Of a DNA stretch of 64,000 nucleotides, positions 6,468-58,520 are shown piece after piece. Position 1 is the first letter of the stretch. Each line of letters starts with the position of its first letter. The DNA comes from an uncultured bacterium (GTDB taxonomy: Bacteria > Bacteroidota > Ignavibacteria > OLB7), in contig CBINGZ010000024.1 in NCBI GenBank assembly GCA_966250335.1, positions 10,842 to 74,841 of the forward strand. Reading direction: 5' to 3'. The translations under genes and the position numbers were made by a program. The notes under the pieces were generated by a model. It did no database searches. It was not told the DNA's origin and saw only the letters and a program-made list of their open reading frames with translations.

Positions 6468-6498
6468 GTGGCGGTCGGAGGGTAGGGGACGTTTCCCG

Positions 6499-7431
6499 CT
6501 ACCACTCCTCGCCCGGCCCCATCACGGTCGCCTCGCGATCTATCCGGTCGAGCGAGAACCCGGCGACAAGATCGCGGGCCGATACCGGTTCCGGCCGGTC
6601 GATCACTCCGCAGCTCCAGGCGAGCCGGCCGATCAGCTCCTCCGGGGTACGACCCGCCGCGCGCAGTTCCGCCACGGAGACCGAACCGTGCCGCTTGGCG
6701 AGGCGGGTGCCGTCGGAGGCGAGGATGAGAGGAACATGGGCGTAGAGCGGGGGGGGAGCGCCGAAGGTGCGGAAGAGAAGGATCTGCCGGGGGGTGGAAT
6801 CGAGAAGGTCGTTCCCGCGGAGGACATGGGTGATCCCCATCGCGATATCATCAAGCACCACGGCCAGCTGATAGCTGAAGACCCCATCGGCTCGCGCCAC
6901 GATAAAATCTCCGGCCGCCGCGTCCACATCCTCCATGATCGTTCCGGCGACCCCGTCGTGGAATTCCACGGTCGTCCCCGGCTCCACTCTGAACCTCCAG
7001 GAAGGCTCCTTGATCTCCGCCCGTTCGGCGCGGAGGGTGGGGGAGATATCGCGACATGTGCCGGGGTAGCGGTTCCCGGCCGATCCGTGCGGCGCGCTGG
7101 CGATCTCCTTCAGTTCCCTGCGCGAGCAGTAGCAGGGGTAGATCAGTCCCCGGCGCTCCAGATCGGCGAGCGCATCGCGATAGAATCCGAAGCGGGAGGA
7201 TTGAACGTACTCCGGGGCCGGCTCATTGTCCCAGTCGAGGCCGAGCCAGGTCAGATCCCGCACGATCCCCTCGGAGGCGCCCGCCGCGGCGCGCGCCCGG
7301 TCGAGATCCTCGATCCGCAGGATGATCTCACCGCCGAGCGAGCGGGCCTGCAGCCAGGCCAGGAGAAACGAGCGGGCGTTGCCGATATGCAGGTAGCCGG
7401 TGGGGCTGGGTGCGAGTCTGCCTCGAAACAT
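6499..7431 (-). CDS. gluQ: Glutamyl-Q tRNA(Asp) synthetase
   Basis: RLAPSPTGYLHIGN (HIGH), LRIEDLD, YPCYCSR, RLAKRHG (KMSKS-like); 310 aa with no anticodon-binding domain. Confidence 0.9.
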   Translation of the reverse strand: MFRGRLAPSPTGYLHIGNARSFLLAWLQARSLGGEIILRIEDLDRARAAAGASEGIVRDLTWLGLDWDNEPAPEYVQSSRFGFYRDALADLERRGLIYPCYCSRRELKEIASAPHGSAGNRYPGTCRDISPTLRAERAEIKEPSWRFRVEPGTTVEFHDGVAGTIMEDVDAAAGDFIVARADGVFSYQLAVVLDDIAMGITHVLRGNDLLDSTPRQILLFRTFGAPPPLYAHVPLILASDGTRLAKRHGSVSVAELRAAGRTPEELIGRLAWSCGVIDRPEPVSARDLVAGFSLDRIDREATVMGPGEEW

Positions 7432-9620: not shown

Positions 9621-9925
9621 GGCGGGGTCGAATGTTATGAAATGATAACGCGGGGACCGGCTTGTGTTCAGGCCCGTTCGAGGTATGTTTGTAGCACATA
9701 CGCGTTGACGAATATGTTGACGCGACGCGTGTACGGGGCCGAATGCGCCGACAGGCGCGGTTTCCCGACGAAATTCCCCGCCCGTGGGGCCGTTTCCGCC
9801 CCGCCCCTCGTCCCCCCGTGTTCCTGCGGCGACGAATATGCGCAACGCCCCGGTGACGGCAAAGCGACGGTGGGGAGGGGGGCGTCTCCGGCTCTTTACA
9901 CGGTACCGAAACAATATCGACGTCA

Positions 9926-10702
9926 GTGGCTTCCAGTAGACCGCATTTATCCCGACTCGATCTTTCACGCAGACTTGCCGCCGAAGCGCTCGGCACGGCC
10001 CTTCTTCTGGCGACGATCGTCGGCTCCGGCATCATGGCCGAGCGGCTTGCCGCGGGGAACGCCGGGCTGGCTCTGCTGGCGAATTCGGTCGCGACGGGGG
10101 GGGTGCTCGTGGCCCTTATCCTGACGTTCGGCCCGATATCGGGCGCGCATTTCAATCCGGCGGTGACGCTTGCCGACGCGACGCAGCGGGGGATATCGTG
10201 GAAGGATGTTCCGGGCTATATCGCGGCGCAGTTCGCGGGGGCGTTCGCCGGTGTCGCCGTCGCGAACGTCATGTTCGACCTCCCCCTCTTTTTCGCGTCG
10301 CATCACGAGAGAAACGGCGCGGGTCAGTTGACGGGCGAGTTCGTGGCGACCTTCGGCCTGCTCTCGGTGATCTGGGGCTGCTCCCGCTACCGGCCCGGGG
10401 TTACTCCGTTTGCCGTGGGGGCGTATATCACCGGGGCGCTCTGGTACACATCATCCACGTCGTTCGCGAACCCGGCGGTGACGCTGGCACGCTCGGTCAC
10501 CGACACGTTCGCGGGAATCCGCATCGACGACGTGCCCGGTTTCGTTGCCGTGCAGCTTCTGGGCGCGGCGGCGGCAACGCTTCTTTTCCGCTGGCTGACG
10601 CCGCCGCTTTCCGCCGGGGCCGATGCCGTTGTCTCGGGTCCGCCGGAGATGGTCTCCGGCGGATCGCGGGGGGATTCGCAGATATCGGGAGATCCTACAT
10701 GA
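9926..10702 (+). CDS. MIP/aquaporin family channel (AqpS-like arsenite channel)
   Basis: SGAHFNPAVT and FANPAVT dual NPA motifs; located in an ars cluster. Confidence 0.9.
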   Translation: MASSRPHLSRLDLSRRLAAEALGTALLLATIVGSGIMAERLAAGNAGLALLANSVATGGVLVALILTFGPISGAHFNPAVTLADATQRGISWKDVPGYIAAQFAGAFAGVAVANVMFDLPLFFASHHERNGAGQLTGEFVATFGLLSVIWGCSRYRPGVTPFAVGAYITGALWYTSSTSFANPAVTLARSVTDTFAGIRIDDVPGFVAVQLLGAAAATLLFRWLTPPLSAGADAVVSGPPEMVSGGSRGDSQISGDPT

Positions 10703-16128: not shown

Positions 16129-16555
16129 CGGAACGGGGTCGGGCCGACCGACCCCCTGTTCCTCTCCGGTTCGGCAACACGCCGTTGAAAAATCCAGCCG
16201 CCTGGTTCCGAGGTCTCCGGAACGCGGCCGCACAGCGATCCTCATGCTGACAACACACCCGGGCGGACGACTCTAACTGGCGTCGAGCCGTCCGCCCGGA
16301 AATGTACACGGAACGTGGAGGCATGAAGGATTTGAAAATCTCATGGAGCGATCTATATGCCGTCGCTCCTTCCTTGAGCATGAGCGCCCGTCAGGGACGT
16401 ACGACCATGCACCTCATGCCGGCACGGCCGGGCGGAGACGGCCGCTTTGAGCTGTCGTGGCCGTCCGCCCGGTAACGGCCGGCAACCTTTCCCGACGCGG
16501 GTCGGGACCGAACGTCAACGGAAGAACAAACGCAGCGGGGAATATTTCATATCGT

Positions 16556-17362
16556 ATGAAGAGCATCTTCGATCGCGTCGGAACCATCGTATCTCGTATC
16601 GGCGTGCGCTTGCTCGCCCTCGTCCTCATCCTCCTGACATTCGGCGCCGCGGAGCGGCTGAACGCGCAGGATCCTTCCCCCGGATCGATGAGGCTGGTCA
16701 TCAAGTACCGCTGCCGCGCGGCCGACCGTCCGGCCTTCCTGGAGGCGATGCGGACCGACGGGACGAAACGGTTCGACGGGTGGAGGAACGACGGCGTCAT
16801 CAGCGACTATCTGCTGATGTTCAACACGGTCTGCGACACCGGGACGTGGGATATGATGGCGGTCCTCTCCTTCGCGACCTACGATCATACGGCGCGGTGG
16901 TACGACATCGAGGAGAAGTTCCCCGGCGGGCTGACGCCGGAGCTGCTGAAGATCGCGACCCCCGTGGAGACACATCTCGCGGAGTCGAAATGGTCGTTCG
17001 GAAAACCGGGCGACAGGCGCTCGGCGGTCTACATGGTGATCCCCTACAATCATCCCGACCGCACCGTCTACACGAACTTCGTGAACGCGGTACTGGTGCC
17101 GCAGTTCGAGGGATGGATGCGCGAGGGGGCGCTGAGGGCCTGGTCGATTCTCCTTACATCGCATTATCCCGGCAGGCCGTACGATATATGGCTGATCCTG
17201 GAGTACGACGGGATCAACGGTCTGGCGCACCGCAACTCGGCCCGCGATGCGACGGCCGCCCTCCTGGAGAAGGATCCGGGATGGAGCCTTCTCAGAAAGG
17301 TCTCCGAGGCGTATCGGAGCGAACATGAAGTCACGATCGCACGAGCGGTAACAACCCGGTAG
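16556..17362 (+). CDS. Secreted hypothetical protein with an internally duplicated domain (paralog 1)
   Basis: Signal peptide; two related halves (RFDGWRNDGVISDY / QFEGWMREGALRAW). Confidence 0.75.
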   Translation: MKSIFDRVGTIVSRIGVRLLALVLILLTFGAAERLNAQDPSPGSMRLVIKYRCRAADRPAFLEAMRTDGTKRFDGWRNDGVISDYLLMFNTVCDTGTWDMMAVLSFATYDHTARWYDIEEKFPGGLTPELLKIATPVETHLAESKWSFGKPGDRRSAVYMVIPYNHPDRTVYTNFVNAVLVPQFEGWMREGALRAWSILLTSHYPGRPYDIWLILEYDGINGLAHRNSARDATAALLEKDPGWSLLRKVSEAYRSEHEVTIARAVTTR

Positions 17363-17419
17363 TGCCCCCGGCGCCCGGATCATCCATAGCAACGTTCCTT
17401 CAACCTCAGTATCCCCAGT

Positions 17420-18211
17420 ATGATGAGATCGACACTCTGCATGAAATCGGCTCGTTACGCGATCATTCTCTTCCTTGCGACTCTTCTCGGTTCTGCGGCC
17501 GCCCACGCGCAGACCGAGCCGAAGGGGGTCACACAGATGTTCATTACCTACCGATGTGATCCCGCCAACCGGGTCGCCTTCATCAAGGGGCTGGAAGGGG
17601 AGGGGATCAAGCGCTTCGACGAATGGAAACGGACAGGCGTCATCGGCGACTATCTCCTCCTCTACAACAATTTCGTCGACGCCAACACCTGGGATGCCAT
17701 GGTGACGGTGACCTTCAACGACTACGCGCAGACCGAGAAATGGAGAGCCGTCGACAAGAACAACCCGGGCGGCCTGAGCGCCGAGATGCTGAAGATCGCC
17801 TCGCCGCATACCACCTATCTGGCGGACATGCTCGTTCGCAAAGGTTCGGCGGGAGATCAATCCAAGTCGATCTATGTCGTAATCCCATACGATTACACCG
17901 ACAGAGGAACGTACGTCAACTACATCAGGACCTACGGCGTGCCGCAGTTCGACGGGTGGATTCGCGAGGGAGCGATCACCAGCTACAGCATCTTCCTGAA
18001 CCAGCATGCGCCGGGCGCTCCCTGGGACGCGCTCCTGCTCTTCGAATACAAGGGGATCGAAGGGCTCGCGATGCGGGAGGTGATCAAGCAGAAGGTCCGC
18101 GCCGGACTCGCGGCCGACCCCTCCTGGAAGCTTCTCTCCGACACGAAGCTCGACTTCCGGGTGGAGCGTGAGGTCGTGATGGCGAGCGCCGTCCAGAGCT
18201 CCGGCAGATGA
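17420..18211 (+). CDS. Secreted hypothetical protein (paralog 2 of 16556-17362)
   Basis: Signal peptide AHA/Q; aligns throughout with paralog 1 (YRC, TWD, PGGL, VIPY, PQFxGW, DPxW). Confidence 0.8.
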   Translation: MMRSTLCMKSARYAIILFLATLLGSAAAHAQTEPKGVTQMFITYRCDPANRVAFIKGLEGEGIKRFDEWKRTGVIGDYLLLYNNFVDANTWDAMVTVTFNDYAQTEKWRAVDKNNPGGLSAEMLKIASPHTTYLADMLVRKGSAGDQSKSIYVVIPYDYTDRGTYVNYIRTYGVPQFDGWIREGAITSYSIFLNQHAPGAPWDALLLFEYKGIEGLAMREVIKQKVRAGLAADPSWKLLSDTKLDFRVEREVVMASAVQSSGR

Positions 18212-46882: not shown

Positions 46883-46966
46883 TGGAGGGCTCTCACGCCC
46901 CGTAACATTGTGGCGTACTTCAAGGCCGGGACCTCCCCGGACCTGCTTACCAGCGAAGATTACGCC

Positions 46967-48718
46967 ATGTCCTACTTCGATATCGTCTTGCGATGCGCAT
47001 CCCGGAGCCTTCGGGTCGCTCTCTCTCTCTGGTTCGCCGCGGCCCTCTCGGTCGGGAGTGTGTCGGCGCAGTTCCTCGTCAGGAACATCAACACGGCGGG
47101 TGGTGGAGCGAACGGCTCGACCCCCGCGAAGCTCGTCGATCTGTCGGGGACCATCTTCTTCGCCGGGACCGCGGCGGGGACGGCACGGGAACTCTGGAAG
47201 AGCGACGGGACCGAAGCGGGGACGCTTCTGGTGCGCGACGTCAATCAGGGGAACAGGAACGGCATCGGCGACAACCCGGAACTGGTCGCGGTCGGGGAGA
47301 CGATCTTCTTCATCGCGACCGACGGGGTCTCCGGTTACGAGCTCTGGAAGAGCGACGGGACCGAAACCGGAACTATCATGGTAAGAGATATCCGCCCCGG
47401 GGCGGAAAGCTCCATGCCCGATATCGACGGTCTCCCCGCCGCGCTTACCATCTCCGGTTCCACCCTCTACTTCGTGGCGAACGACGGAACGCACGGGTTC
47501 GAACTCTGGAAAAGCGACGGCACGGCCGAGGGGACGGTGATGGTACGGGACCTCAATCCCGGAGGGGATGCCTTCAGCGACCAGGAGATCCCGATGATCG
47601 ATATCAACGGCACGATATTCTTCGGCGCCGACGACGGAACGAGCGGCGCGGAGCTCTGGAAGAGCGACGGCACCGGGGCGGGAACCGTACCGGTGAAGGA
47701 TATCTACCCCGGCGCGGAGTCGTCGGTCCTGAAGTGGTTCGTCGATCTGGAGGGTACGCTTCTCTTCTCCGCGCTCGACGGCGCGACGGGAGTCGAGCTC
47801 TGGAAAAGCGACGGCACGGCCGGTGGGACCACGATCGTGCGCGACATCCTCGACGGCACCGGAAGCTCCGTTCCGACCGGCCTCACCCTTCTCGACGGCT
47901 TCGTCTATTTCGCCGCGGCCGACGGCGACAGAGGGATCGAACTCTGGAGGAGCGACGGCACATCGGCCGGCACGACGATGATCGAGGTGCATCAGGGGGC
48001 CGCGGGATCGCTCCCCCTCTTTCTGACCCCGGTCGGCGACAGGCTCTATTTTCTTGCGAACGACGCCGAGCATGGTGACGAGCTTCGCCTCTACGATCCC
48101 TCCACGGGCGCCGTGACGCTCGTCCGGGATATCAACCCCGGCACGCCGCACGGGCTTCTTCGCGGCCTCTCGCAACTCGTCTCGTTCGACGGGAAGCTCT
48201 ACGTCGGCGCGCGGGACGGAGGGGCCTCGGCGGTCGGCCCGCTCGAGCTGGAACCGTGGGTCAGCGACGGGACGGAGGCCGGAACCCGGCTTCTCAGGGA
48301 TATCTATCCCGGCACCGTCGGCTCGGCGCCGAAGGAGTTCACGGTCTCCGGCGAGAATCTCTTCTTCTCCGCAAAGGACGATCGGAACGGACAGGAGCTC
48401 TGGGCCCTGAAGCGGAGCGGCTCATCGTCGACACCCCCTGTCGTATCGGGCGATGCTTCACTTCGCATCTCCCGGACCACTCCCAATCCCGCCAGGGAGA
48501 CGATCACGATCTCATACACGCTGGCGCAGGCGGGAAAGGCGACGATGACGCTCCACGATATTCTTGGAAGAAGATCCGCGATCCTTCTCGACACCTATCT
48601 TCCTGAAGGATCGCATACGGTGGAATGCGACGTCCGGGATCTTCCCGCCGGTCTCTACTCATGCCGGCTCGTCGCGGGGGATGCGATCGTATCACGAACG
48701 GTGGTTGTCCGAAAATAA
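46967..48718 (+). CDS. ELWxxDGT repeat protein with T9SS type A sorting domain
   Basis: Signal peptide; six ELW[KR]SDGT repeats plus degenerate copies; C-terminal PNPARE...LPAGLYSCRL. Confidence 0.92.
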   Translation: MSYFDIVLRCASRSLRVALSLWFAAALSVGSVSAQFLVRNINTAGGGANGSTPAKLVDLSGTIFFAGTAAGTARELWKSDGTEAGTLLVRDVNQGNRNGIGDNPELVAVGETIFFIATDGVSGYELWKSDGTETGTIMVRDIRPGAESSMPDIDGLPAALTISGSTLYFVANDGTHGFELWKSDGTAEGTVMVRDLNPGGDAFSDQEIPMIDINGTIFFGADDGTSGAELWKSDGTGAGTVPVKDIYPGAESSVLKWFVDLEGTLLFSALDGATGVELWKSDGTAGGTTIVRDILDGTGSSVPTGLTLLDGFVYFAAADGDRGIELWRSDGTSAGTTMIEVHQGAAGSLPLFLTPVGDRLYFLANDAEHGDELRLYDPSTGAVTLVRDINPGTPHGLLRGLSQLVSFDGKLYVGARDGGASAVGPLELEPWVSDGTEAGTRLLRDIYPGTVGSAPKEFTVSGENLFFSAKDDRNGQELWALKRSGSSSTPPVVSGDASLRISRTTPNPARETITISYTLAQAGKATMTLHDILGRRSAILLDTYLPEGSHTVECDVRDLPAGLYSCRLVAGDAIVSRTVVVRK

Positions 48719-48780: not shown

Positions 48781-49428
48781 ATGAAACGACCGATGGAGGA
48801 GAGGTCGATCGTGGTGGCGATCGTGGAGGACGACGAGGCGATCCGTGTGTCGCTGACCCTGATCATCGACGGTTCGCCCGGCTTTACATGCTGCGGCGGG
48901 TTCGCCAGCGCGGAGGAGGCGCTCAAGGCCCTGCCGGGGAATCCGCCGGACGTGGTGCTGATGGATATCGGGTTGCCCGGTATCTCCGGCATAGAGGCGA
49001 CGCGGCTGCTGCGCGAACATATCCCCGATACCGATGTGGTGATGCTCACCGTGAAGGAGGACGACGACACGGTCTTCAGCTCGCTCTGCGCCGGCGCGAC
49101 CGGTTATCTCATCAAGAGCATGCAGCCGGCGCGACTGCTGCAGTCGATCGACGAGGTCTATCGCGGCGGGTCGCCGATGACCGCCTCGATCGCGCGACGG
49201 GTCATCCGATCGTTTCAGGCGGCGCCGGCCGATTCTCCCTCGCTCACGCGTCGTGAGTCCGAGATTCTGGAACATCTCTGCAACGGCGAGAGCTATCGTG
49301 TGATCGCCGAAAAGCTCTACGTCAGCGGGCACACGGTCCGCGCCCACATCAAGAACATCTACGGCAAACTCCAGGTCAACTCGCGCGCCGCGGCGGTGCG
49401 CAAGGCGATGAGGGAGCGGCTGATCTGA
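48781..49428 (+). CDS. NarL/LuxR family response regulator
   Basis: IVEDD, DVVLMDIGLPGISGIE, GYLIK; HTH LTRRESEIL...TVRAHIKNIYGKLQV. Confidence 0.95.
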   Translation: MKRPMEERSIVVAIVEDDEAIRVSLTLIIDGSPGFTCCGGFASAEEALKALPGNPPDVVLMDIGLPGISGIEATRLLREHIPDTDVVMLTVKEDDDTVFSSLCAGATGYLIKSMQPARLLQSIDEVYRGGSPMTASIARRVIRSFQAAPADSPSLTRRESEILEHLCNGESYRVIAEKLYVSGHTVRAHIKNIYGKLQVNSRAAAVRKAMRERLI

Positions 49429-49469
49429 TTCATTCCACAACCCGCATTCATATCATTCAGGGAGGTATC

Positions 49470-49928
49470 ATGCTGATCCCAAGGATCCTGCTTGTCCTGC
49501 TGCTTGCCTTTACCGTTTCGGCATGCGGCGACGACGCCCCAACGGACGACGGTGGGAACAACAACGGCGGAACATTCAAGAACGAAACGAAGGGAACGGT
49601 CAACGGAGCGGAGTGGAGCGCCACGAACATCATTGCCACGCGCAACGATATGGGGGGACTGACCGTGCTGACGTTCACCGCGCACGGCGCTGCGGAGTCG
49701 CGGATCTCGTTCGGCATCGCGAACGCTTCGGTCCGGGCCTTCACCATCGACGGCGGGCCGGTCCAGGCCGATTACAGGTACCAGGGGAAGTCGTTCAAGG
49801 GGAACGGCGGCACGATCACCATCGAGGTCCTGACCGACAAGGGGATGCGGGGAAGCTTCACCGTCAGCGCGGCGACGACAGGGGGGGAGACGGGGAGCGC
49901 GAGCGGAACGTTCGACGTCGGTTTCTGA
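49470..49928 (+). CDS. Beta-rich lipoprotein, paralog of 23902-24378
   Basis: Lipobox VSA-C-GDD; VNGAEWSATN, GTITIE, GTFDVGF; ggagg RBS. Confidence 0.75.
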   Translation: MLIPRILLVLLLAFTVSACGDDAPTDDGGNNNGGTFKNETKGTVNGAEWSATNIIATRNDMGGLTVLTFTAHGAAESRISFGIANASVRAFTIDGGPVQADYRYQGKSFKGNGGTITIEVLTDKGMRGSFTVSAATTGGETGSASGTFDVGF

Positions 49929-49998
49929 GCCGATCCGCGGGTCCGGTGGAGCGAATACGGGGTTCCCTATCGCCGGACGCGCGGATCATTCAGTTTCA

Positions 49999-50511
49999 TT
50001 ATTCGACTTTTATATCGCCGTACGTTGTGTATTCCTCGGTCCCGCGGACGACCGCGATGAAGGCCCGATAGATGCCCGGCGTCAGGTCGGCGAGGTTGAA
50101 CTCTCTGACGTTCGTTCCTTCGGGCATGAACTCTTCCAGCAGAACCTTCTGGAGCTTCCCCGGAGCCGAGTCGAGCCAGATCCGCACCGAGTCGTCCTGT
50201 ACCAGAGCGAGTCGTATCGAGACCCGCTCCTGCACCGGATTGGGAATTGCAGGGCTGAGGGTCAGTCCCACCTGCGGCAGCGAGCGCCAGTCGTCCGAGG
50301 CGTCGCCGATCGTTCCCAGCAGCCTGCCGTCTTCCGCCGTGAGCTGAATCCCGGTGAACCCGGCCCTGGTAGTGTCGGTCGTATCTGTCGTGTCCGTCTT
50401 GTCGTACTTGATGGTCTCATAGTCGCAGCCCGTCATGGTCAGGAGCATGAAGGAGGCAAGAAGCAGCATGAGGATGATGAGTCCCGAGCGAGGCGATGTC
50501 GTTGTCTTCAT
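49999..50511 (-). CDS. Lipoprotein with T9SS-CTD-like C-terminal Ig fold
   Basis: Lipobox MTG-C; DTT repeats; PAIPNPVQ...LTPGIYRA. Confidence 0.7.
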   Translation of the reverse strand: MKTTTSPRSGLIILMLLLASFMLLTMTGCDYETIKYDKTDTTDTTDTTRAGFTGIQLTAEDGRLLGTIGDASDDWRSLPQVGLTLSPAIPNPVQERVSIRLALVQDDSVRIWLDSAPGKLQKVLLEEFMPEGTNVREFNLADLTPGIYRAFIAVVRGTEEYTTYGDIKVE

Positions 50512-50683
50512 GATAGGTGTTGTCCTGCTTCATTCGTGGTACGATCGATGCCTGTCGAGAGCATCCGTCACAAAGAGCGTGTCGATCCTTCATGACCCGA
50601 CACGACCGCCGAATATAATCTCCACGACTCTCTTGAACAGAACAATTGCGCGCGGCTGTTCCTGACGATCACGCAGGTGACGA

Positions 50684-51667
50684 TCACTCTCTCCCCGGCA
50701 TCTCGATCGAGATCACCTGGTCCAACCCTCGTTTGAATCCATCGGAATCGGATAATACTCGCGTCCTGGGCTCCACGAAGGGGAAGCGGAGCCCGCGGGC
50801 CCCTTCGTCCGGCGCCGTCGTTCCGTGACGGCGTACGATATGTTTATGGGATGTGGCCTCGGTATTGGTCGACATCTTCAGCAGAGGCGTCTTCACCTCC
50901 GCTATGCCGTGCAGCGCCGACCATTCGGCGGGCCAGGAGAGGACTTCCAGCAGCAGATCGACCTCCTCGGCGTAACCGAGCTCGCGCCCCAGATCGAGAA
51001 GTCGTCGCCCGAGCGCGGCGCTCCGTTCGCACGAGAGGCTGCAGGGGAGATGAGGGAGCGCACCGAGGCCGAGCCGGGCCAGCATGAAGTTCGTCTCGAC
51101 GGGACCGTCGATCTCCAGCGTCCGATCGTCGATCGCTTCCGGAGCGCTCGACAGCGCCGCCTGCCACATAGAGTCGACGGCGTCACATTCCTTCATGCCG
51201 CGATAGAATTCGACACAGCACGGCGGGTAGCCGAAGATCTCTCCCAGCGCCTCGACATCATCAGCTTCCCACGCCTCCCGGAGCCTCGGCAGAGTTTCGG
51301 CGCGGGCCACGGCGATATGGAAGAACATTGAGGCGGGATCATTCCCACGGTCGAAGAACGGTCCGCCGGAGAGGAGCTCCATTTCGAGCGGGAGCCCTTC
51401 CAGACCCGACTCCGCCCATCGTTGTCTGGCCGTGCTGAATGTCCCGAGCGACTCTGCGACGATCGCCCCTTCCCTGATGCCGTGCTCCACGGAGCGCCAT
51501 AGTATATCGCGCCATGCCGTCGTGATCCTTCGGAACCGGGGCTCCCAGATCCTCCGTGCCGTATCGCCGACCCAGCTTACACGGACGAAGGGGTGAAGAG
51601 AGAAGTCGAGCGTCTCGAGCTTCCGGAAGCGGGAGCTGCTCCCTGCGTCGATCGCGATATTCGTCAC
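50684..51667 (-). CDS. Unknown Cys-motif protein (DUF483-like), last gene of the RiPP operon
   Basis: GTG 51667 overlaps the rSAM stop (GTGA); 327 aa; motifs LGEIFGYPPCCVEFY, PHLPCSLSC, SWPAEWSALHGIAEVKTP. Confidence 0.75.
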   Translation of the reverse strand: MTNIAIDAGSSSRFRKLETLDFSLHPFVRVSWVGDTARRIWEPRFRRITTAWRDILWRSVEHGIREGAIVAESLGTFSTARQRWAESGLEGLPLEMELLSGGPFFDRGNDPASMFFHIAVARAETLPRLREAWEADDVEALGEIFGYPPCCVEFYRGMKECDAVDSMWQAALSSAPEAIDDRTLEIDGPVETNFMLARLGLGALPHLPCSLSCERSAALGRRLLDLGRELGYAEEVDLLLEVLSWPAEWSALHGIAEVKTPLLKMSTNTEATSHKHIVRRHGTTAPDEGARGLRFPFVEPRTRVLSDSDGFKRGLDQVISIEMPGRE

Positions 51668-52869
51668 AGCAGTTCCTCCGCCGGTTGAAGAGCAGTATCG
51701 TGAGCCGAGCCTTCCGTGACGCGACGCATCGCCTCGACGATCGGTATCGACATGCCGAACCGCCACCCGTCGAGCATCGCCTGTTCGACGGCGGGCCGGG
51801 AGGGGTGGAGCGAGAGGGGAAGGGAACCCGCGTCGAGGATCTCCTTCTCCAGCCGTTCGTAGAGTCCCATCCAGACATGGCAATGTTCGGAGCGGTTTCT
51901 CCAGTCCCCCTCCAGCGAGGTGCCGGGACAGTTCCCCTTGCACATCAGGAAGAACCGGCACTCCCGGCAGCCGAGATATTCCTGCGGTGTATGGTAGAGT
52001 GCGATGTATCGTTCGAACCCTTCGCTCTCCGACTTCACGAAGTCTATGCCGTCCTTGTTGGTGCGCCCGCAGTTGCTCCTCTGTCCGTTCCCCTCGATCC
52101 CCTGAACGGCTCTCGTGGTGTACGGATCGCAGCCGGCCCAGACGCATGAGCAGACTTCGTCGCGGCCGTGGAGAAGTCGGCGCATCTCCTGGAAGAGATC
52201 GAAGCGGAGCGTGGTGAGGCGCTCGTTCTCGAACATCAGGAACGACTCGAGCATGGCAAGATTTTCCTCCGGAGACATCGCGTACTTCTCCCGGATCGCC
52301 CCCTGTTCCACCTCCAGCAGATGGAGCCGCGCGGAGGTCACTCCCATGCGTTCGATCTCCAGCAGCCATTCGAACAGGAGCGGCAGCCGTTCCGGTGATC
52401 CGTTGCCTCGATGCATGGTGAGGATAAGGGCCGGAGGAATTCCCTCGGCGCAGAGTCGACGTATCGCATTGTGAGTCGCCTCGGTCGCGGCGCGCGTCCG
52501 CTCCAGCGTTCCCACCCATCGGACGTCGTTCAGCGCCCCGGGACCGTCCACCGATACCCCAACCTGGACGCCGTACGCCTTGAACATCCTGATATGTTCG
52601 TCGTTGACGAGCACGCCGTTGGTCTGTATCTGATTACGACCGAACCGCGAGTACCCCCACGACCAGAGCTCCTCAAGGTCCCGTTCCGGCACCAGCAGCG
52701 GCTCGCCGCCGAAGAGGGTGAACGGCTCCCCGGCCGCCTCGATCGCCCGCATGATCCCCGGAAGATCGTACTGATGGAGGACATTGGCCGCGTCGCGCTG
52801 CGGGTTCTGGTAGCAGTACTGGCACTGGATGTTGCATTTCACACCCAGGGGACGCACTTCGACGCTCAT
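51664..52869 (-). CDS. Radical SAM/SPASM domain enzyme (putative peptide maturase)
   Basis: CNIQCQYC, FGGEPLL, IQTNG, GVSVDGP; C-terminal Cys array including C-x2-C-x5-C-x3-C (CRECRFFLMCKGNC). Confidence 0.9.
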   Translation of the reverse strand: MSVEVRPLGVKCNIQCQYCYQNPQRDAANVLHQYDLPGIMRAIEAAGEPFTLFGGEPLLVPERDLEELWSWGYSRFGRNQIQTNGVLVNDEHIRMFKAYGVQVGVSVDGPGALNDVRWVGTLERTRAATEATHNAIRRLCAEGIPPALILTMHRGNGSPERLPLLFEWLLEIERMGVTSARLHLLEVEQGAIREKYAMSPEENLAMLESFLMFENERLTTLRFDLFQEMRRLLHGRDEVCSCVWAGCDPYTTRAVQGIEGNGQRSNCGRTNKDGIDFVKSESEGFERYIALYHTPQEYLGCRECRFFLMCKGNCPGTSLEGDWRNRSEHCHVWMGLYERLEKEILDAGSLPLSLHPSRPAVEQAMLDGWRFGMSIPIVEAMRRVTEGSAHDTALQPAEELL

Positions 52870-54857
52870 GGACGCTCCGCTGGTTGAAGTTCGTCGATCG
52901 TGTCGGGAGTGAACCGCTCCTCGGTCGACGGTTCGGCAGGTGGATCGAGAAGCGAGCCGACGGGGTTTCGCTCCAGCTTCTCCGGCGGCCGCACCAGCCT
53001 GCCGGTTTCGACCACCAGGGAGAGGGCCCGGCCTCCGTCGACGAGAATGTATCCCAGATCGACAAGTCCGTTGAATGTCGTCGTGTGATCCTTGTCGCTC
53101 TCCTCCGTCAGCTTCGCGAGCGTCCGTTCCACCTGCGCCGGCTCGCGGAACAGCTCGAGCATCCGCAGCTCATCGGGCTCCACGAACCTCCAGCGCTCGC
53201 GCGAGCAGAAGCGGGTATCCTTGATCGCGGCCAGCGGTCCGATATGGATCAGCATCAGGCAGGGGGGCTCTTCGCGATTGTCGGCGCGTCGTCGCCAGTT
53301 CGCGACCGCCTCGCGTATCGGCGCCACGTAATCCCCCGGATCGACGTCGGTGGGCGTGCCGTCGAAGAAGTAGGCGATCTCGGGAAGGAGGGAGGGATCG
53401 ATGTCGTGGATCACTCCGTAGGCCGGTGTCGGGACCACGTCGACGAAGCCGAGCCTGGCCGACTGTTCGTAGTAGGGACTGAAGCGGTCGAGCCGGACCT
53501 GCGATATTCCCGACGGAGGATCGAGATGTTCGAGCAGGAGCATCACCTCGGCCATTCTCCGATACTGTTCCCCGCGCTCCCCCGGAAATCCCCACAACAT
53601 GTTCCAGATCGATCGTATGCCGATCTCCTGACAGGTGCGCAGAAGCCGCACGTTCTGGAGCATCGACACCCCTTTCTCCATCAGGTTCAGGATATCGTCG
53701 TCCAGGCTCTCGATGCCGGGCTGAATCCACGTCACGCCGCCGCGCGCGATCTGCGTGAGCTGCTCGGCGGTCATGTTCGACTTGATCTCGTAGAAGAAGG
53801 TGAGCGGAGGAACCCGTTCGGCAAGGGGACGGAAGACCGTCTCCACATGCTGCATGTGCATGATGTTGTCTGCCGCCTCGAAGAGATCGACCCCCCATCG
53901 GGAATGGAGAGTATCGATCTCCTCAAGTATCCTGGCGGGAGATTTTACCCGGTAGGTCATTCCCTTGCCGTTCAACCCGCAGAATCGGCAGTGCTTCTTT
54001 GCTCCCCACCAGCAGCCGCGCGACGTCTCGAAGAGCATCCCCACATCCACGCGGTCGCGGTAGCTCATCAGCGAGAGGGTGCCGAAGTAGTCGTCGAAGC
54101 TGGGGATCGGAAGTTCGTCCAGGTCGGAGATGAATTCAATATCGCTGCTCGATCCGTTGAGTGAAATCGATACGGGGGGGAGGGAGATCGTGCGCCCTTC
54201 ATCCCCGCGTTCCCGCCTGAAGACCCCGACTCCGTCGCCCGGCGGAGAGTCACCCGCCAGAATGCGCTGAGCCGCATCGGGAAACGATCTGTCGGATTCT
54301 CCCGAGAAGACGTAGTCGATGAAGGGATAGGCCGTCAGCAGCGCCCGTCCCATCGGCCCTTCGCAGTTGGCGCCGCCGAAGCAGAGAACGACCCCGGGGT
54401 TGAACTCCTTCAGCCGTCGCGCGATCGCCAGCGACGCGCAGGTCTGCTGGAAGCTGCTGGAGAAGCCGACGATCTGGGCGCCGGAGTCGGCCAGCTTCCA
54501 TGCCGAGCGCTCGACGAACTCATCGGTCAGCTCGCGCAATTGCAGGACCTTCCTGAACCTGTCGGTTCCGAGATAACCTTCGAGCCATCGGATATACTCC
54601 CGTTCCCCGGCCGTTCCGCGCTCGCCGTTCAGCGTACGCGCGAAGGTCCACTCGCCGATGAGAAACTTGGTGGCTGTACGCTCCGCGATATATTCGGTGA
54701 TCTCTACTCCCGCCGTTTCGGCAAAGCGCATGTTGAGATATTCTATCCGCGTCGCGATTCCGAGCGCCTCCAGCGACCCCTTCAACGTGCTGACGCCGAG
54801 CGCGGGGCGCACCACCGACAGGTAGGGGGCCGTGACGAAGATGACGGAATCGCTCAT
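52866..54857 (-). CDS. Cobalamin-dependent RiPP maturation radical SAM C-methyltransferase (TIGR03975-like)
   Basis: True start ATG 54857 (ATGA overlap), 663 aa; RPALGVSTLK, B12-binding IVGFSSSFQQ...FGGANCEG, ETSRGCWWGAKKHCRFCGLNG (CX7CX2C), IQPGIESL, WNMLWGFPGE, RLDRFSPY. Confidence 0.9.
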   Translation of the reverse strand: MSDSVIFVTAPYLSVVRPALGVSTLKGSLEALGIATRIEYLNMRFAETAGVEITEYIAERTATKFLIGEWTFARTLNGERGTAGEREYIRWLEGYLGTDRFRKVLQLRELTDEFVERSAWKLADSGAQIVGFSSSFQQTCASLAIARRLKEFNPGVVLCFGGANCEGPMGRALLTAYPFIDYVFSGESDRSFPDAAQRILAGDSPPGDGVGVFRRERGDEGRTISLPPVSISLNGSSSDIEFISDLDELPIPSFDDYFGTLSLMSYRDRVDVGMLFETSRGCWWGAKKHCRFCGLNGKGMTYRVKSPARILEEIDTLHSRWGVDLFEAADNIMHMQHVETVFRPLAERVPPLTFFYEIKSNMTAEQLTQIARGGVTWIQPGIESLDDDILNLMEKGVSMLQNVRLLRTCQEIGIRSIWNMLWGFPGERGEQYRRMAEVMLLLEHLDPPSGISQVRLDRFSPYYEQSARLGFVDVVPTPAYGVIHDIDPSLLPEIAYFFDGTPTDVDPGDYVAPIREAVANWRRRADNREEPPCLMLIHIGPLAAIKDTRFCSRERWRFVEPDELRMLELFREPAQVERTLAKLTEESDKDHTTTFNGLVDLGYILVDGGRALSLVVETGRLVRPPEKLERNPVGSLLDPPAEPSTEERFTPDTIDELQPAERP

Positions 54858-55978
54858 AGGACGATCCTCCCGGCGGATGCCTCCGCGGGTTCGGCGCCGG
54901 CTGCGGGAATCGGTTCCCGCTCGATCGGAGGGGCAGGAGGTGTGAAGATGTCGAGAGCGCCGAGCACGGCGGCCTGCACGTTCAGCGACTGCATCTTCCC
55001 CGGCAGAGCCTTGTGAAGCAGCTCCACGTTGCGCGGGTTCCCGAACAGAACATCGCATGCGTTGCATATCCCGTCGAAATCGTCGTCGACGCAGGGACGC
55101 TCGGTTCCGGCCGTGATCTGCCGAAGCATCGCGACAGGCCCTTCGAACGCCAGCCACTGCATGACAGGGTCGGCGTAGGCGTTCCGGATCATCGTATCGA
55201 GGCTCTCCTTTCCCAGCTCGCCGATTCCCAGCCCATCGCGATACGGTATGACGCCGCAGCATGCAAGGACCTTGCCGTCCGGGTTGACGGAGAACTGACG
55301 GAGCATGGAGAGGCACGGTCCCTTGTACCCCCGTGCGCTGGCGCGGCGTCTCTCCATCTCCTCCTCGGATATGTTCTCGAGCGCACGCCCAGTGCTGTTG
55401 ATGAACGTTTCGTAGATATGGGCCTGGCCGCCTCCCCCTTCCGGCAGTCCGAGCAGACGGGCGATGTAGGCGCCGTCGATCCGCGTATCGGGTCCGACGA
55501 CGACGGCGATCTTCACCTCCAGCCCCAGTTCTTTCGCTGCGCGATATGCATGGACGACGCTGCTCTCCTTGAGGTATTCGGCGTGCTGGTCGTCGTACGA
55601 TATGGTCAGCCGTTCCAGACCGGCGGCGGCGAGCGGGGTCAGGAGGGAGAGGGCGCGCGCTTCGGTGGTGGCCCAGAACGCGCTGGTCACGACAGCGGAG
55701 CCGATGCCGTAGGAGCGTGCGTGACGGAAGGCGCGTTCCATGATATCGGGATGAAGGAACGGGTCCCCTCCGACGAAATCGAGTCGGCCGACGGAATCGA
55801 TACGCGCGGCGTCGTCGATCGCCGCCAGGATCTCCTCGGCCGAGAGATGCGCGATAAAGGTCATGTCGGAGCTGAAGCAGCAGTGGGAACAGCGCAGGGG
55901 ACAGCGATAGGTGATGTTGATCACAAGCTCCTGCGGAGAGATGCGGCTGGGGGAAGCAACGGTGCGTGATGTCGCCAT
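54854..55978 (-). CDS. Radical SAM enzyme, YydG/EpeE peptide epimerase-like
   Basis: CPLRCSHCCFSS, VTSAFWA, LTISYDDQHA, DGKVLACCG, FDGICNACDVLF parallel the B. subtilis YydG motifs as recalled (CxxxCDHCCFSS, NGFWG, LTISYDEYHA, DGEIYPCCS, FSSICGVCGSLF); ggagg RBS. Confidence 0.8.
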   Translation of the reverse strand: MATSRTVASPSRISPQELVINITYRCPLRCSHCCFSSDMTFIAHLSAEEILAAIDDAARIDSVGRLDFVGGDPFLHPDIMERAFRHARSYGIGSAVVTSAFWATTEARALSLLTPLAAAGLERLTISYDDQHAEYLKESSVVHAYRAAKELGLEVKIAVVVGPDTRIDGAYIARLLGLPEGGGGQAHIYETFINSTGRALENISEEEMERRRASARGYKGPCLSMLRQFSVNPDGKVLACCGVIPYRDGLGIGELGKESLDTMIRNAYADPVMQWLAFEGPVAMLRQITAGTERPCVDDDFDGICNACDVLFGNPRNVELLHKALPGKMQSLNVQAAVLGALDIFTPPAPPIEREPIPAAGAEPAEASAGRIVL

Positions 55979-56080
55979 TGGAAACGCTCCTCCATGAATA
56001 GTCGTGTAGGCGGCCGACGTCCTTCAAAACCCGGATCGGGACGGGCTCGTCACATGAATCGCGGGACGATCCGATCGAAA

Positions 56081-56113
56081 GGTCGTCACCCCACTGAAGG
56101 CGGGGTGACGACC
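56081..56113 (-). terminator. Stem-loop between precursor genes and maturase genes
   Basis: 12-bp perfect stem ggtcgtcacccc / ggggtgacgacc, 18 bp after the precursor 2 stop; only a short T-run follows on the minus strand. Confidence 0.65.
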
Positions 56114-56131
56114 ATATCGCAACCCGAATGA

Positions 56132-56371
56132 TCAGCCCACGTCGACGTGAACAATCGCCGACTGAGCGCCGGCGGCGTTCGCCGAAGCGAGCCTTTTCTG
56201 ATTGGCGTGGTTCCGGATCCTCTCGGCGGTCTCCGGATCGACTTCGATGCCCATATGAGCAAGCACCTCGTGCGGATCATTGGCGAGATCATCCAGGATG
56301 TTCTCACGATCCTTCAACGCGCCTGCTCTCTCATGGAGCGTCGCAGTGTCGGTGTCTATGACGATTCTCAT
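56132..56371 (-). CDS. Putative RiPP precursor peptide 2 (79 aa)
   Basis: aggagg RBS, ATG 56371; MRIVIDTDTATL...LANDPHEVLAHMGI...AQSAIVHVDVG; paralog of precursor 1. Confidence 0.85.
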   Translation of the reverse strand: MRIVIDTDTATLHERAGALKDRENILDDLANDPHEVLAHMGIEVDPETAERIRNHANQKRLASANAAGAQSAIVHVDVG

Positions 56372-56575
56372 TCGCTTGCCTCCTGCAATTGAGGTAGTGG
56401 CAGAGGGGGGATTCCGCTCCGTACGGTGCGGGCAATCCGATCCGCTGCCGGACGAGATATACGTCGGCTTTCGCGCGGAGGCGCCGAGACCGGCATGACC
56501 GGAATCGGTGAACACCGCGCGCAACGGTTCGGCGCGGGATCGACCCGACCGTTCGGCCGGATCTACCCGGTTCGA

Positions 56576-56800
56576 TCAGGCGTCGATATGAACGATGGAA
56601 GCCTGAACCGTTGAGTTCGACTTCGAGACGCCGGCATAATGGCGCAGAGCCTTTGCCGTTTCGTCATCGGCGGGGAGACCGAGCTGACGCAGCACACCGT
56701 GCGGGTCAACCGAGAGGCCTTCGAGAATGGAAGGATTGCTGCGGAGGCGTTCGCCGGCCAGTTCCAATGTTTCGACGTCGGTGTCGAGATTGAACTTCAT
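56576..56800 (-). CDS. Putative RiPP precursor peptide 1 (74 aa)
   Basis: aggag RBS; MKFNLDTDVETL...LSVDPHGVLRQLGL...VQASIVHIDA; first gene of the operon. Confidence 0.85.
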   Translation of the reverse strand: MKFNLDTDVETLELAGERLRSNPSILEGLSVDPHGVLRQLGLPADDETAKALRHYAGVSKSNSTVQASIVHIDA

Positions 56801-57493
56801 GATGATGACTCCTGTGTAGTATGAATATGAACCCGTTTCGTAATATCGCTGTTGGATATTCTAAAACGGATTGAACAAGGCGGAATCATGCCCGTCCCGA
56901 AATCGTCACATGAGAATCATGTGGCGCCGCGGTACGGGTCCATCGGAAGAAACGTCTATGAAAACCGGTAGGGGGCTGGTCGGAACACGATAAAGGGGGA
57001 ATTCGGCAGGGGCATGCGAAACCGTGCGGATATCGCGGCCCCGACGTCCGATTCGGCCTGTTGTCCTTGAATGAGAGTTGAGAAGGAAGTGGGGAGCCGG
57101 GATGTCGTTCCCCCGTGCGCCTCGACTGCGCACCCTGCATCACGTACGGCTGACGACGCCTTCCGGAAGGCATCATTCACAGATATTGCGGGCTCACGTC
57201 GTGGAATCGACGTTTCCGATCTCATCGCAATACGTATATCAACATACGATATCGTATTGCAATGGACAAGGCGGTTACACTTTGAAATACACCGCCATCG
57301 GCAGGTTCCCCCACCCGGTCATAACACCCTATCTTTCTCTCTCTTCTTTCCTACCTCTGTGTCCTCTGTGACTCCCTCTGGTTATTCCTCTTCTCACCGG
57401 ACATTGACAAATGTCATGGTACACCCTCCACCATCCCCCTAGTTTAACCCCGGCTCCAAGAACTCGACTCCCGACATTCACACGAGCGCCGTT

Positions 57494-57859
57494 ATGCGTA
57501 CCATCATTGCCGTTCTCATGATCCTGCACGGGATCGCCCATCTACCGGGATTTATCGTCCCGTGGCGTCTCGCCGAATTCAAGGAGACCCCCTACAGAAC
57601 CACCCTCGGCTCCGGCCGGATCGACGTGGGCGATACGGGGATACGGGTTGTCGGCACCCTCTGGCTGATCGTTGCGGTCGTATTCGTCGCCGTCGGTATC
57701 GCCATGATCGGCGACGGAGGCCGATGGCCGTTCGTCGCCGTTGCCGCCGCTCTCGCATCGCTCGTTCTCAGTCTTCTCAGCCTTCCCGAGGCGCGCATCG
57801 GTGTGGTCGTCAACCTGGTGATTCTGGGGCTGCTGGCCGTCTCGGGCGCGATGGAGTAG
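57494..57859 (+). CDS. Small membrane protein (about 4 TM)
   Basis: LHGIAHLPGFIVPWRL N-terminal motif and hydrophobic helices. Confidence 0.7.
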   Translation: MRTIIAVLMILHGIAHLPGFIVPWRLAEFKETPYRTTLGSGRIDVGDTGIRVVGTLWLIVAVVFVAVGIAMIGDGGRWPFVAVAAALASLVLSLLSLPEARIGVVVNLVILGLLAVSGAME

Positions 57860-57899
57860 AAGCGATCCGTCGATCTCAACAACAACAGGAGAGAACCCC

Positions 57900-58520
57900 A
57901 TGAGAACGATACTTGTGTCGATGATGATATGTCTGCTTGCCGCTTCCCTGCATGCCCAGCAGGAGCGGATCGATCGCGACCCGGGGCACGCCGGCTTTGT
58001 TGCGGTGCAGGGAGGACCGACACGGCTCAACGGAGCTCTCGGCATGCTGGTGGGGGCCGGAGTGTACGGCGGCCTCGATCCCCATACACGTGTCGGCATG
58101 ACGGCCGCCCTGCTTGTGAACGACGTGCGGGGAATGTCCGATGCCTCGACACGAACTCTGCGGTTCGGTTACGGCGGCGTTCGCTGCGAATATATCGTCA
58201 ATCCTGAAGACCGGTTCCAGGCTTCTCTCTACGCCCTTGTCGGCGCCGGAGCCCTGCTCCTCGACGGGCCGGTCGACGAGCCCCGCACGGGACTGGCGAA
58301 AAGCGGCGGCACGAATGTGGTGGTGACGATCGACGACGACACCGATGCGTTCATGGTCGCGGAGACGGGGCTCGGCGTTGAAACGGCGGTTGCCGAATAT
58401 CTGCGGCTGGGGGTGAACGCCGGCTACCGTGTCGTTCACGGTGTGGAGACGGAAGGGGTCGATAATGTGTCGGTGGGCGGGCCGATCGCGGCGGTTTCCC
58501 TGCGGTTCGGACTGTTCTGA
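57900..58520 (+). CDS. Outer membrane beta-barrel protein
   Basis: Signal peptide, alternating beta-strand pattern, FGYGG, AGYRVV, C-terminal LRFGLF. Confidence 0.75.
   Translation: MRTILVSMMICLLAASLHAQQERIDRDPGHAGFVAVQGGPTRLNGALGMLVGAGVYGGLDPHTRVGMTAALLVNDVRGMSDASTRTLRFGYGGVRCEYIVNPEDRFQASLYALVGAGALLLDGPVDEPRTGLAKSGGTNVVVTIDDDTDAFMVAETGLGVETAVAEYLRLGVNAGYRVVHGVETEGVDNVSVGGPIAAVSLRFGLF

Follow-up and report, generated by a model that had tools for sequence, protein, structure and literature searches.

Paralogous candidate precursor peptides with a C-terminal His-x-Asp tail, encoded beside three radical SAM enzymes in an uncultured Ignavibacteria bacterium

Introduction

Peptides made on the ribosome and modified after translation (RiPPs) that are matured by radical S-adenosylmethionine (SAM) enzymes are a main source of new peptide chemistry and antibiotic leads. 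In the passages of PMC13012085 that deal with these epimerases, YydG (EpeE) is described as epimerising one Val and one Ile with Cys223 as the hydrogen donor, and its type possesses an auxiliary-cluster domain that the PoyD type lacks. SPASM enzymes form His-x-X3 rings by connecting His-C2 to a C-beta, in the motifs HAA (HaaB), HNR (YhhB), and HTK (HtkB) named in the sections of PMC11499958 on these products. Os1348 is presented, in the corresponding passages of PMC7726476, as a helical protein of 85 aa whose C-terminus is flexible, a predicted precursor tied to antibiotic activity and encoded in a cluster with a HEXXH-domain protein. Here, we analyze two adjacent small genes, pepA and pepB, and the operon to which they belong, in a stretch of 64,000 nt (hereafter the window) that corresponds to positions 10,842 to 74,841 of the forward strand of contig CBINGZ010000024.1 (GenBank assembly GCA_966250335.1), from an uncultured bacterium of the GTDB lineage Bacteroidota, Ignavibacteria, OLB7. 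Probably, both genes encode paralogous precursors of an undescribed radical-SAM-modified RiPP family, whose chemistry we infer by homology.

Results

The pepA and pepB genes

Both genes are read from the minus strand. The pepA gene (56576..56800) encodes a 74-aa candidate precursor with a helical leader (about residues 1-62), a Ser/Asn-rich linker, and the core QASIVHIDA, and pepB (56132..56371) encodes one of 79 aa with the core QSAIVHVDVG. The start of pepB was set at the ATG at 56371 and not at the upstream TTG of the 130-aa open reading frame (ORF) given in the ORF listing; this ATG has a ribosome-binding site, AGGAGG, 7 nt on its 5' side, as that of pepA has AGGAG 8 nt upstream. A preliminary description, made from the letters of the stretch, had read the two ORFs as a precursor pair with a conserved leader, a variable linker, and a conserved core, and all of its motifs, namely DTDxxTL, IL..L..DPH.VL..[LM]G[LI]..D.ETA..[LI]R, and the two cores, are indeed present at these coordinates.

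The two products align with 50.8 bits by BLASTP (E = 2e-15), 28 of 77 positions being identical. In the codon alignment, the same residue is encoded at 28 of 74 codons, 14 of which differ synonymously; 49% of all aligned nucleotides agree, but 36% of those in third codon positions. Given this low overall and third-position identity together with the synonymous codon differences, comparison of the sequences indicates that pepA and pepB are an old duplication kept by selection at the protein level, that is, under purifying selection; selection had been claimed beforehand from the divergence of the DNA around conserved residues. No third copy was detected in the window's genome, where the search returned these two matches and a next best one at E = 0.59. 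A library representative (P0003) differs from PepB by one residue.

As had been remarked in the preliminary description, neither Cys nor Gly-Gly occurs in either peptide. Sactipeptides, ranthipeptides, and lanthipeptides were dropped as candidates because the peptides have no Cys, and a bacteriocin processed by a peptidase-containing ATP-binding transporter (PCAT) because the peptides have no Gly-Gly and the window no such transporter. The enzyme set likewise contains no sactipeptide or ranthipeptide maturase above cut-off.

A peptide family with an H-x-D tail

A profile built from both peptides, as the preliminary description had suggested, was compared with 1.84 billion cluster representatives at E <= 1e-3. 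This profile, seeded with tail-bearing peptides, gave 53 matches, 44 of them short (57-89 aa) and nine long. The C-terminal end consists of H-x-D plus one to three residues in 36 of the 44 short relatives, and a triceptide-type aromatic-x-X3 core motif is thus found as H-[IVLFA]-D in these 36 as well as in PepA and PepB. The preliminary description had made the conservation of the IVHxD tail and the proximity of radical SAM genes the touchstones of its precursor reading, as opposed to relatives that lack the tail or stand mainly alone, and the reading withstood both: the tail is the rule among the short relatives, and all five real loci described below adjoin radical SAM genes.

Over 52 distinct H-x-D-tailed peptides, taken from the library and from the loci, the consensus of the tail is Q(33)/P(9)/A(7) - A(47) - S/A/G - I/V/A - V/I(50) - H - I(38)/V/L - D - x, and exactly one residue follows the Asp in 48 of them. 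Alignment A3 holds 35 tail-bearing relatives, the eight short matches without the tail and the truncated P0012 being left out; within the leader, Gly41 and Asp45 are invariant. Among the eight tail-less short relatives, five keep the leader and end in tails made nearly entirely of Ala, Val, Ile, Gly, and Pro. With regard to the long matches, the six that were scanned are leucine-rich or tetratricopeptide repeat proteins, P0038 repeats a Rossmann-type dinucleotide-binding N-terminus, and P0030 is an over-long ORF containing a family peptide with an Ala/Val-rich tail. P0016, P0027, P0041, P0043, P0051, and P0030 share the same helical leader, have after it 25-30 residues that are almost exclusively Ala, Val, Ile, Gly, and Pro and lack His-x-Asp, and form a second subfamily.

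The family is apparently both unannotated and undescribed. Neither PepA nor PepB matches a Pfam or NCBIfam model at E <= 0.01. A word-index protein search with PepA recovered PepA itself and nothing else, and the same search with the 35-row alignment recovered 16 proteins, those with a name all being called "hypothetical protein"; no family member bears any other name. Family-based annotation would therefore probably miss such precursor genes. In an atlas search with PepA, the best neighbors were an unnamed 73-aa cluster (0.88) and a "Nif11 family" one (0.86), which, both being below 0.9, serve as leads only. We found no published account of the precursor family or of the enzyme combination, which the supplementary lists of the compendium papers on triceptides and radical SAM enzymes could hold.

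Gene neighborhood in other lineages

Further loci were searched for with a back-translated degenerate DNA pattern of the tail that covers about eight of the 35 A3 tails, so the loci are a small sample. Three of the seven pattern stretches in genome_contigs are real and belong to Sphingomonas kyeonggiensis, a gammaproteobacterial metagenome-assembled genome (MAG), and a proteobacterial MAG; two of the seven in metagenome_contigs are real as well. The other four stretches of the former set (L009, L012, L014, and L015) and the other five of the latter do not encode the peptide family and were discarded.

In all five real loci the peptide genes directly adjoin radical SAM genes. The four with long flanks (L016, L017, L018, and L022, of which L016 and L022 are one lineage) each carry homologs of all four enzymes of the window operon and two to four tandem peptide genes, and the 1.1-kb contig L025 shows two peptides followed by the start of rSAM1. 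Identity to the window proteins across the loci is 37-55% for rSAM1, 37-50% for the B12-binding radical SAM enzyme, 46-60% for rSAM3, and 22-38% for ORF4. Furthermore, a single protein combines rSAM3 and ORF4 in L017 (687 aa), the corresponding fusion of L018 has 956 aa and includes a methyltransferase domain, and in L016 an ORF4 with the methyltransferase domain is followed by an alpha-ketoglutarate (aKG)-HExxH hydroxylase.

This distribution is sporadic. The peptides are found in one of 401 genomes of the window's phylum, which is the window's own, and ORF4 has no relative in the 400 others sampled; three peptide matches at E of about 0.01 in this sample lie inside frames of 252-573 aa and were set aside as noise. 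Likewise, one of 251 genomes in the family of the Sphingomonas genome (G401) has the peptides, and none were detected in the 250 others.

Several observations concern individual loci. The hydroxylase of L016 (16225-17010) is an aKG-HExxH peptide beta-hydroxylase (TIGR04267, 70 bits). On the minus strand, L018 encodes at 16546-18039 a RamC_N plus kinase protein similar to class III/IV lanthionine synthetases in their first half, and L017 a DUF4213/DUF364 pair at 5831-6659. The gammaproteobacterial L017 also has, at 9629-10640 (minus strand), three copies of 44-49 aa with the second half of the leader only and the full H-x-D tail, and, in addition, one copy with a full leader that ends without the tail. 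Third-position GC of 0.30-0.39 in the L017 island versus 0.55-0.70 in its flanks suggests a recent transfer.

Three radical SAM enzymes in one operon

In the window, the gene order on the minus strand is pepA-pepB-rSAM1-B12 rSAM-rSAM3-ORF4, and each of the three enzyme junctions has overlapping start and stop codons; these six genes form a translationally coupled operon and probably a single biosynthetic unit.

The first enzyme, rSAM1 (54854..55978, minus strand, 374 aa), is a YydG/EpeE-like radical SAM enzyme and a putative peptide epimerase. Its residues 17-323 match positions 2-303 of the 309 of TIGR04078 (105.3 bits, E = 4e-30), and its closest solved relative is YydG (entries 8ai1-8ai6; 8ai6, E = 2e-17). 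PqqE and the mycofactocin maturase are among its weaker matches, and the best 25 of its 43 matches do not include TIGR04517. Nine Cys are invariant in four orthologs (C26, C30, C33, C34, C222, C240, C241, C305, and C308), among them those of the CX3CX2C motif and five further ones. Within the aligned 230-250 segment, rSAM1 has a Cys opposite every Cys of YydG.

The second enzyme (52866..54857, minus strand, 663 aa), whose ATG overlaps the rSAM1 stop codon (ATGA), is a B12-binding radical SAM protein of TIGR03975, the RiPP maturation radical SAM C-methyltransferases. It reaches 580.1 bits (E = 5e-174) versus a cut-off of 281.85, with a copy 19 residues short at the N-terminus; the L016 ortholog reaches 579 bits and that of L017 547 bits. 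In Pfam, it matches Radical_SAM with 57.2 bits and the B12-binding domain weakly, with 17.9 bits.

The third enzyme, rSAM3 (51664..52869, minus strand, 401 aa), starts with an ATG overlapping the stop codon of the B12 enzyme (ATGA). It is a radical SAM/SPASM protein with a Cx2Cx5Cx3C motif and belongs to no curated family. Its best NCBIfam matches are AmcB (68.2 bits), DynA (68.2), anSME (66.4), and YhhB (54.6), all far under the cut-offs. For the cyclophane families, matches are confined to the N-terminal part and fall short of membership: 68.2 bits against a cut-off of 425 for AmcB, 54.6 against 445 for YhhB, 50.6 against 310 for GrrM/OscB, and 39.7 against 450 for XyeB. The PDB matches, to anSME (4k36, E = 2.5e-8) and ChlB (9gm3, E = 6.9e-8, residues 9-138), are restricted to the same part.

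ORF4, a DUF483-like candidate for leader binding

ORF4 (50684..51667, minus strand, 327 aa) begins with a GTG that lies behind a GGAGG and overlaps the rSAM3 stop codon (GTGA). It is DUF483-like: the match to Pfam DUF483 (PF04467) reaches 18.3 bits (E = 0.0024), under the gathering threshold of 25 bits, that of its homolog P0055 20.1 bits, and one homolog has a precomputed PF04467 match. Its neighbors in the atlas are DUF483 clusters (0.96), in which 13-20% of the members carry DUF483. ORF4 has at least 295 homologs, the majority of which are about 500 aa long and carry a class I methyltransferase domain at the C-terminus; the window protein ends where this domain would start, and no methyltransferase gene comes after it. 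Invariant residues include C150, C151, C209, and C213.

The AlphaFold model of ORF4 has a predicted local distance difference test (pLDDT) of 88.3. Foldseek against the PDB gave no match at E <= 1e-3; VIA-align wide ranked 2guk, whose function is unknown, first (Z 6.6) and gave NleE a Z of 4.2; in the PDB profile search, nothing was matched except the methyltransferase domain of the homologs. There was no Pfam or NCBIfam match to a PqqD-type domain, nor an entry containing a RiPP recognition element among the structural matches listed, and no published work on DUF483 was found.

When modeled together, as the preliminary description had advised for the leader and the enzymes, PepA and ORF4 scored 0.63 versus 0.00 for the best control, with at least 46% of contacts agreeing between runs and a partner pLDDT of at least 65. 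It passes the mark set for such models, which 58 of 80 solved complexes attained, as did 2 of 110 mismatched pairs. The modeled contacts join leader residues 1-20, 26, 40, 48, 52, and 55-56 to ORF4 residues 26, 74-98, and 111-118, the N-terminal 20 residues lying against helix 74-86 and strands 90-98 and 111-118. Since ORF4 has no solved relative, a score originating from a memorized complex is unlikely. The model supports binding of the PepA leader by ORF4 and, together with the rSAM3-ORF4 fusions, suggests that ORF4 presents the peptide to rSAM3.

Shape of the leader

In the AlphaFold model of PepA, residues 9-62 form four helices (pLDDT 78-88), and the tail, residues 63-74, is of low confidence (pLDDT about 50); these 12 residues are predicted to be disordered. 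The likeness of the leader to those of the NHLP type, put forward in the preliminary description, is weakly supported. In its favor, NF038399 (Os1348 family, NHLP clan) is matched by 11 of the 35 relatives (best E = 3.7e-4, at most 23.1 bits for a cut-off of 40), TIGR03793 by two of them (best 21.3 bits for a cut-off of 50.9), and other NHLP-related models by a few, always through the leader part and with every score printed lying below the curated cut-off; Os1348 (6lk7) is also the second-ranked Foldseek match of the PepA model (template modeling scores 0.48/0.53). Against it, this structural match has an E of 2.0, and PepA and PepB themselves match no model. We conclude that the leader is weakly NHLP-like. 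A Gly-Gly type leader cleavage site is usual for the TIGR03793 NHLP family; none exists in PepA or PepB. A TIGR03793 search of genomes G000 and G401-G403 yielded no bona fide NHLP peptide. On contig 11 of G403, the genome of L018, two adjacent NHLP-leader-like matches (L027 and L028; 30.7 and 22.4 bits versus 50.9) may mark another RiPP locus.

Environmental DNA and transcription

DNA nearly identical to the region is present in rhizosphere and soil metagenome runs. In two metatranscriptome libraries and in one run guessed to be RNA, contigs match pieces of the operon at 95-100%, those of the guessed-RNA run including both peptide genes. Large parts of the operon are without cover in the RNA runs, and these contigs cannot rank the genes. 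Carry-over of DNA not being excluded, they provide a weak hint that the operon is transcribed. A separate 192-nt contig from a soil metatranscriptome matches the pepA-pepB intergenic region (56383-56573) with two changed letters and a 1-base insertion and could be either a read-through transcript or DNA carried over from a related strain.

Flanking genes and non-coding elements

The non-coding stretch 5' of pepA (56801..57493), which reaches a divergent gene at 57494, contains no credible ORF by third-position GC and is presumed to be the promoter region; a scan of its minus strand detected no sigma-70-like site. Directly after the pepB stop codon and before rSAM1 lies a perfect, G+C-rich 14-bp hairpin (56081..56113, minus strand), a possible attenuator or stabilizer. 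Its fold of -41.3 kcal/mol (z -4.3) was equaled in stability by none of 200 shuffles; on its 3' side there is a short U run only, and it does not appear in the terminator-scan listing. No significant hairpin occupies the same place in L016 or L018, and as a family feature it was rejected, not being kept in the other loci examined. The hairpin region (56047-56113) is an inverted repeat of a 9-mer whose 7-nt core also occurs five times in L018 (10742-10808), with an exact spacing of 15 nt, immediately 5' of the rSAM1 start; neither the 9-mer nor the core is found at the corresponding place in L016, L017, L022, or L025. This repeat may be an operator or RNA element common to the two lineages, or may be due to chance.

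Rfam over 49000-58500 returned a single match, SECIS_4 at 49737-49782 (minus strand), which with an E of 0.23 and 22.7 bits versus a gathering score of 38 is probably noise. The genes on both sides of the cluster are unrelated to it and encode a two-component system, type IX secretion sorting-domain proteins, a BON-domain protein, KduI, and an M48 peptidase. Two Por_Secre_tail proteins flank the cluster, at 46910-48718 (29.5 bits) and at 49999-50511 (a weak 17.8 bits), the latter being a 170-aa lipoprotein-like ORF that adjoins ORF4. Such sorting domains give a hint of the sort of phylum to which the window belongs.

Discussion

A possible maturation pathway

The genes, their paralogy, the family with its conserved tail, the gene neighborhood, and the fusions are direct observations, and from them we infer a maturation in four steps. 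In the first, the four-helix leader, distantly Os1348-like, would dock through its N-terminal DTDxxTL on the N-terminal alpha/beta subdomain of ORF4, as the complex model indicates, and would thereby hold the disordered core Q-A-[SA]-[IV]-[IV]-H-[IV]-D-x at the enzymes. In the second, rSAM1 may well remove the C-alpha hydrogen from at least one Ile or Val flanking the His, a conserved Cys returning a hydrogen to give D-residues; epimerisation of Ile/Val around the His is the best guess for this enzyme because the CX3CX2C motif and the further invariant Cys are kept and those of YydG are matched in the aligned segment. The third step, to which we give slightly more credit, would be the C-methylation of an unactivated side-chain carbon of the core by the TIGR03975 B12-dependent enzyme. 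In the fourth, rSAM3 would act on the His and Asp common to the tail-bearing peptides. By analogy with the His triceptides, the likeliest reaction for it would be to remove a hydrogen from the C-beta of the Asp and to join this residue to the imidazole of the His, yielding a three-residue His-x-Asp ring, and this last proposal is a tentative one.

Taken to its full extent, this pathway would define a new RiPP class with a C-terminal His-x-Asp core, in which a SPASM enzyme, acting with (and in some lineages fused to) a so far unrecognized DUF483-like leader-binding module unrelated to PqqD, links His to Asp in a peptide that is also epimerised by a YydG-type enzyme and methylated by a B12-dependent one. 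We hold the whole of this to be unlikely. If it were true, three radical SAM chemistries otherwise known from separate RiPP classes would converge on about eight residues.

Several facts weigh against the precursor reading and its chemistry. No modification has been observed, and each chemical step rests on homology. The score of rSAM1 (105 bits) is far under the curated TIGR04078 cut-off of 300, and that of rSAM3 is 68 bits for a cut-off of 425, its cyclophane-synthase matches being limited to the radical SAM core. The invariance of His and Asp in A3 arises partly from the selection of rows; the unbiased figure is 36 of 44, itself obtained with a profile seeded with tail-bearing peptides. The loci represent no more than three to four lineages besides the window and, having been found via the tail motif, are uninformative on relatives without it. 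The PepA-ORF4 complex is a model and not a measurement. The window ORF4 is devoid of the methyltransferase domain carried by most of its homologs, so that products may differ between lineages. Finally, the window cluster contains no protease, exporter, or immunity gene, which leaves leader removal and export unexplained.

Alternative explanations

The main rival to a His-Asp ring keeps the peptides as RiPP precursors and leaves both residues unmodified, as recognition residues or as ligands of a metal or a target, the chemistry being confined to neighboring Ile, Val, Ala, or Ser (epimerisation, C-methylation, and, through rSAM3, an anSME-like oxidation or another crosslink). Such a function fits the fact that rSAM3 matches anSME (66.4 bits) as well as it does the cyclophane synthases, the L017 fusion doing so over its full length with 95.8 bits, and that positions -1 and +1 of the His are nearly always Ile, Val, or Leu, which the relevant passages of PMC13012085 document as YydG substrates. 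Strong conservation also extends to the Ala at -4 (47 of 52) and to the Gln at -5, so that a residue is not shown to be modified merely by being conserved. On the other hand, no side chains of the tail are fixed other than those of His and Asp, whose i/i+2 spacing of an aromatic and a C-beta-H residue is exactly the triceptide motif as set out in the parts of PMC11499958 on these rings; furthermore, the loci keep a dedicated SPASM enzyme, which also occurs fused to the modeled leader-binding protein. We regard unmodified His and Asp as somewhat unlikely.

Alternatively, the peptides may be scaffolds for a small peptide-derived cofactor or metabolite in the manner of pyrroloquinoline quinone (PQQ) and mycofactocin, C-terminal residues being crosslinked by a SPASM enzyme with the help of a peptide chaperone, excised, and used inside the cell. 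The conserved chemistry would indeed sit at the extreme C-terminus, a single residue following the Asp in 48 of 52 peptides, the non-catalytic-looking partner ORF4 is modeled in contact with the leader, the weaker rSAM1 matches include PqqE and the mycofactocin maturase, and an exporter, immunity gene, or protease is missing from the window cluster. Yet a dependent oxidoreductase is missing from its vicinity as well, the system occurs in one of 401 genomes of the window's phylum and one of 251 in the G401 family, each locus has two to four diverged precursor copies, and accessory genes vary between loci (methyltransferase domain, HExxH hydroxylase, kinase/lyase-like gene). Sporadic occurrence, multiple copies, and variable tailoring being more typical of a secondary metabolite, a cofactor is improbable. 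It is more improbable still, to the point of being barely credible, that these are small folded helical proteins working unmodified as regulators or adaptors and lying beside radical SAM genes by chance: the leader is predicted as four helices and the nearest solved structure, Os1348, crystallized as a folded helical protein, but Os1348 is itself described as a predicted precursor, with a state that is dependent on genes downstream (both points from the passages of PMC7726476 on it), and here distant lineages have kept the neighborhood with its tandem multi-copy peptide genes, the disordered tail is the most conserved block, and L017 has three copies with half a leader and the full tail.

Significance

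The precursor reading, preferred here, makes this family attractive for experiment. Its core is compact, with two fixed side chains (His and Asp), and its conserved set of enzymes can easily be expressed, so that it offers a clean system for a YydG-type epimerase outside Bacillus, for a PoyC-like methyltransferase acting on a short core, and for the existence of a His-x-Asp ring. If ORF4 is a leader-binding module, this would be the first function for the DUF483-like domain and its at least 295 homologs, and a recognition element beyond current genome-mining tools.

Comparison with known systems

With PQQ and mycofactocin, the locus shares a conserved extreme C-terminus, a SPASM enzyme, and a separate or fused peptide-binding partner (ORF4, as modeled); unlike them, it has an ORF4 without a PqqD-type match, three radical SAM enzymes, and a sporadic distribution of multi-copy loci. 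The proteusins (polytheonamide, with PoyD and PoyB/PoyC, which last two we take to be members of TIGR03975) are comparable in their combination of a TIGR03975 enzyme, here above cut-off, with a helical leader, here giving sub-threshold NHLP-clan matches, and an epimerase, here a candidate. In contrast to proteusins, the conserved core is only 8-9 residues long, no Gly-Gly site is present, and a SPASM enzyme and ORF4 are added. Moreover, rSAM1 resembles the YydG type, which has an auxiliary-cluster domain, and not the PoyD type, as these are distinguished in the passages of PMC13012085 on both.

The Os1348 family is the most frequent NCBIfam match of the leaders (11 of 35), and L016, like the Os1348 cluster, has a HExxH gene. 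The matches are nevertheless under cut-off, the structural one has an E of 2.0, and the term 'radical SAM' is absent from the passages of PMC7726476 on Os1348. As in the His triceptides described in parts of PMC11499958, a His occupies position 1 and a C-beta-bearing residue position 3, and the adjoining SPASM enzyme has cyclophane maturases among its best NCBIfam matches. However, rSAM3 is far under the cyclophane cut-offs and matches in the radical SAM core only, Asp at X3 is not among the motifs named in those parts, and the motif of this family occurs once, at the C-terminus.

The closest system for the first enzyme is YydF/YydG (EpeX/EpeE) of Bacillus subtilis. YydG is both the best family and the best solved relative of rSAM1, over nearly the full length, and rSAM1 has, like YydG, extra conserved Cys in the C-terminal twitch/SPASM-like part. 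The family core is also rich in Ile and Val, the residues that YydG epimerises according to the sections of PMC13012085 on epipeptides. The score of rSAM1 is nonetheless a third of the cut-off, the long helical leader is unrelated to YydF, and the epimerase candidate described here has as obligatory neighbors a DUF483-like protein and two more radical SAM enzymes.

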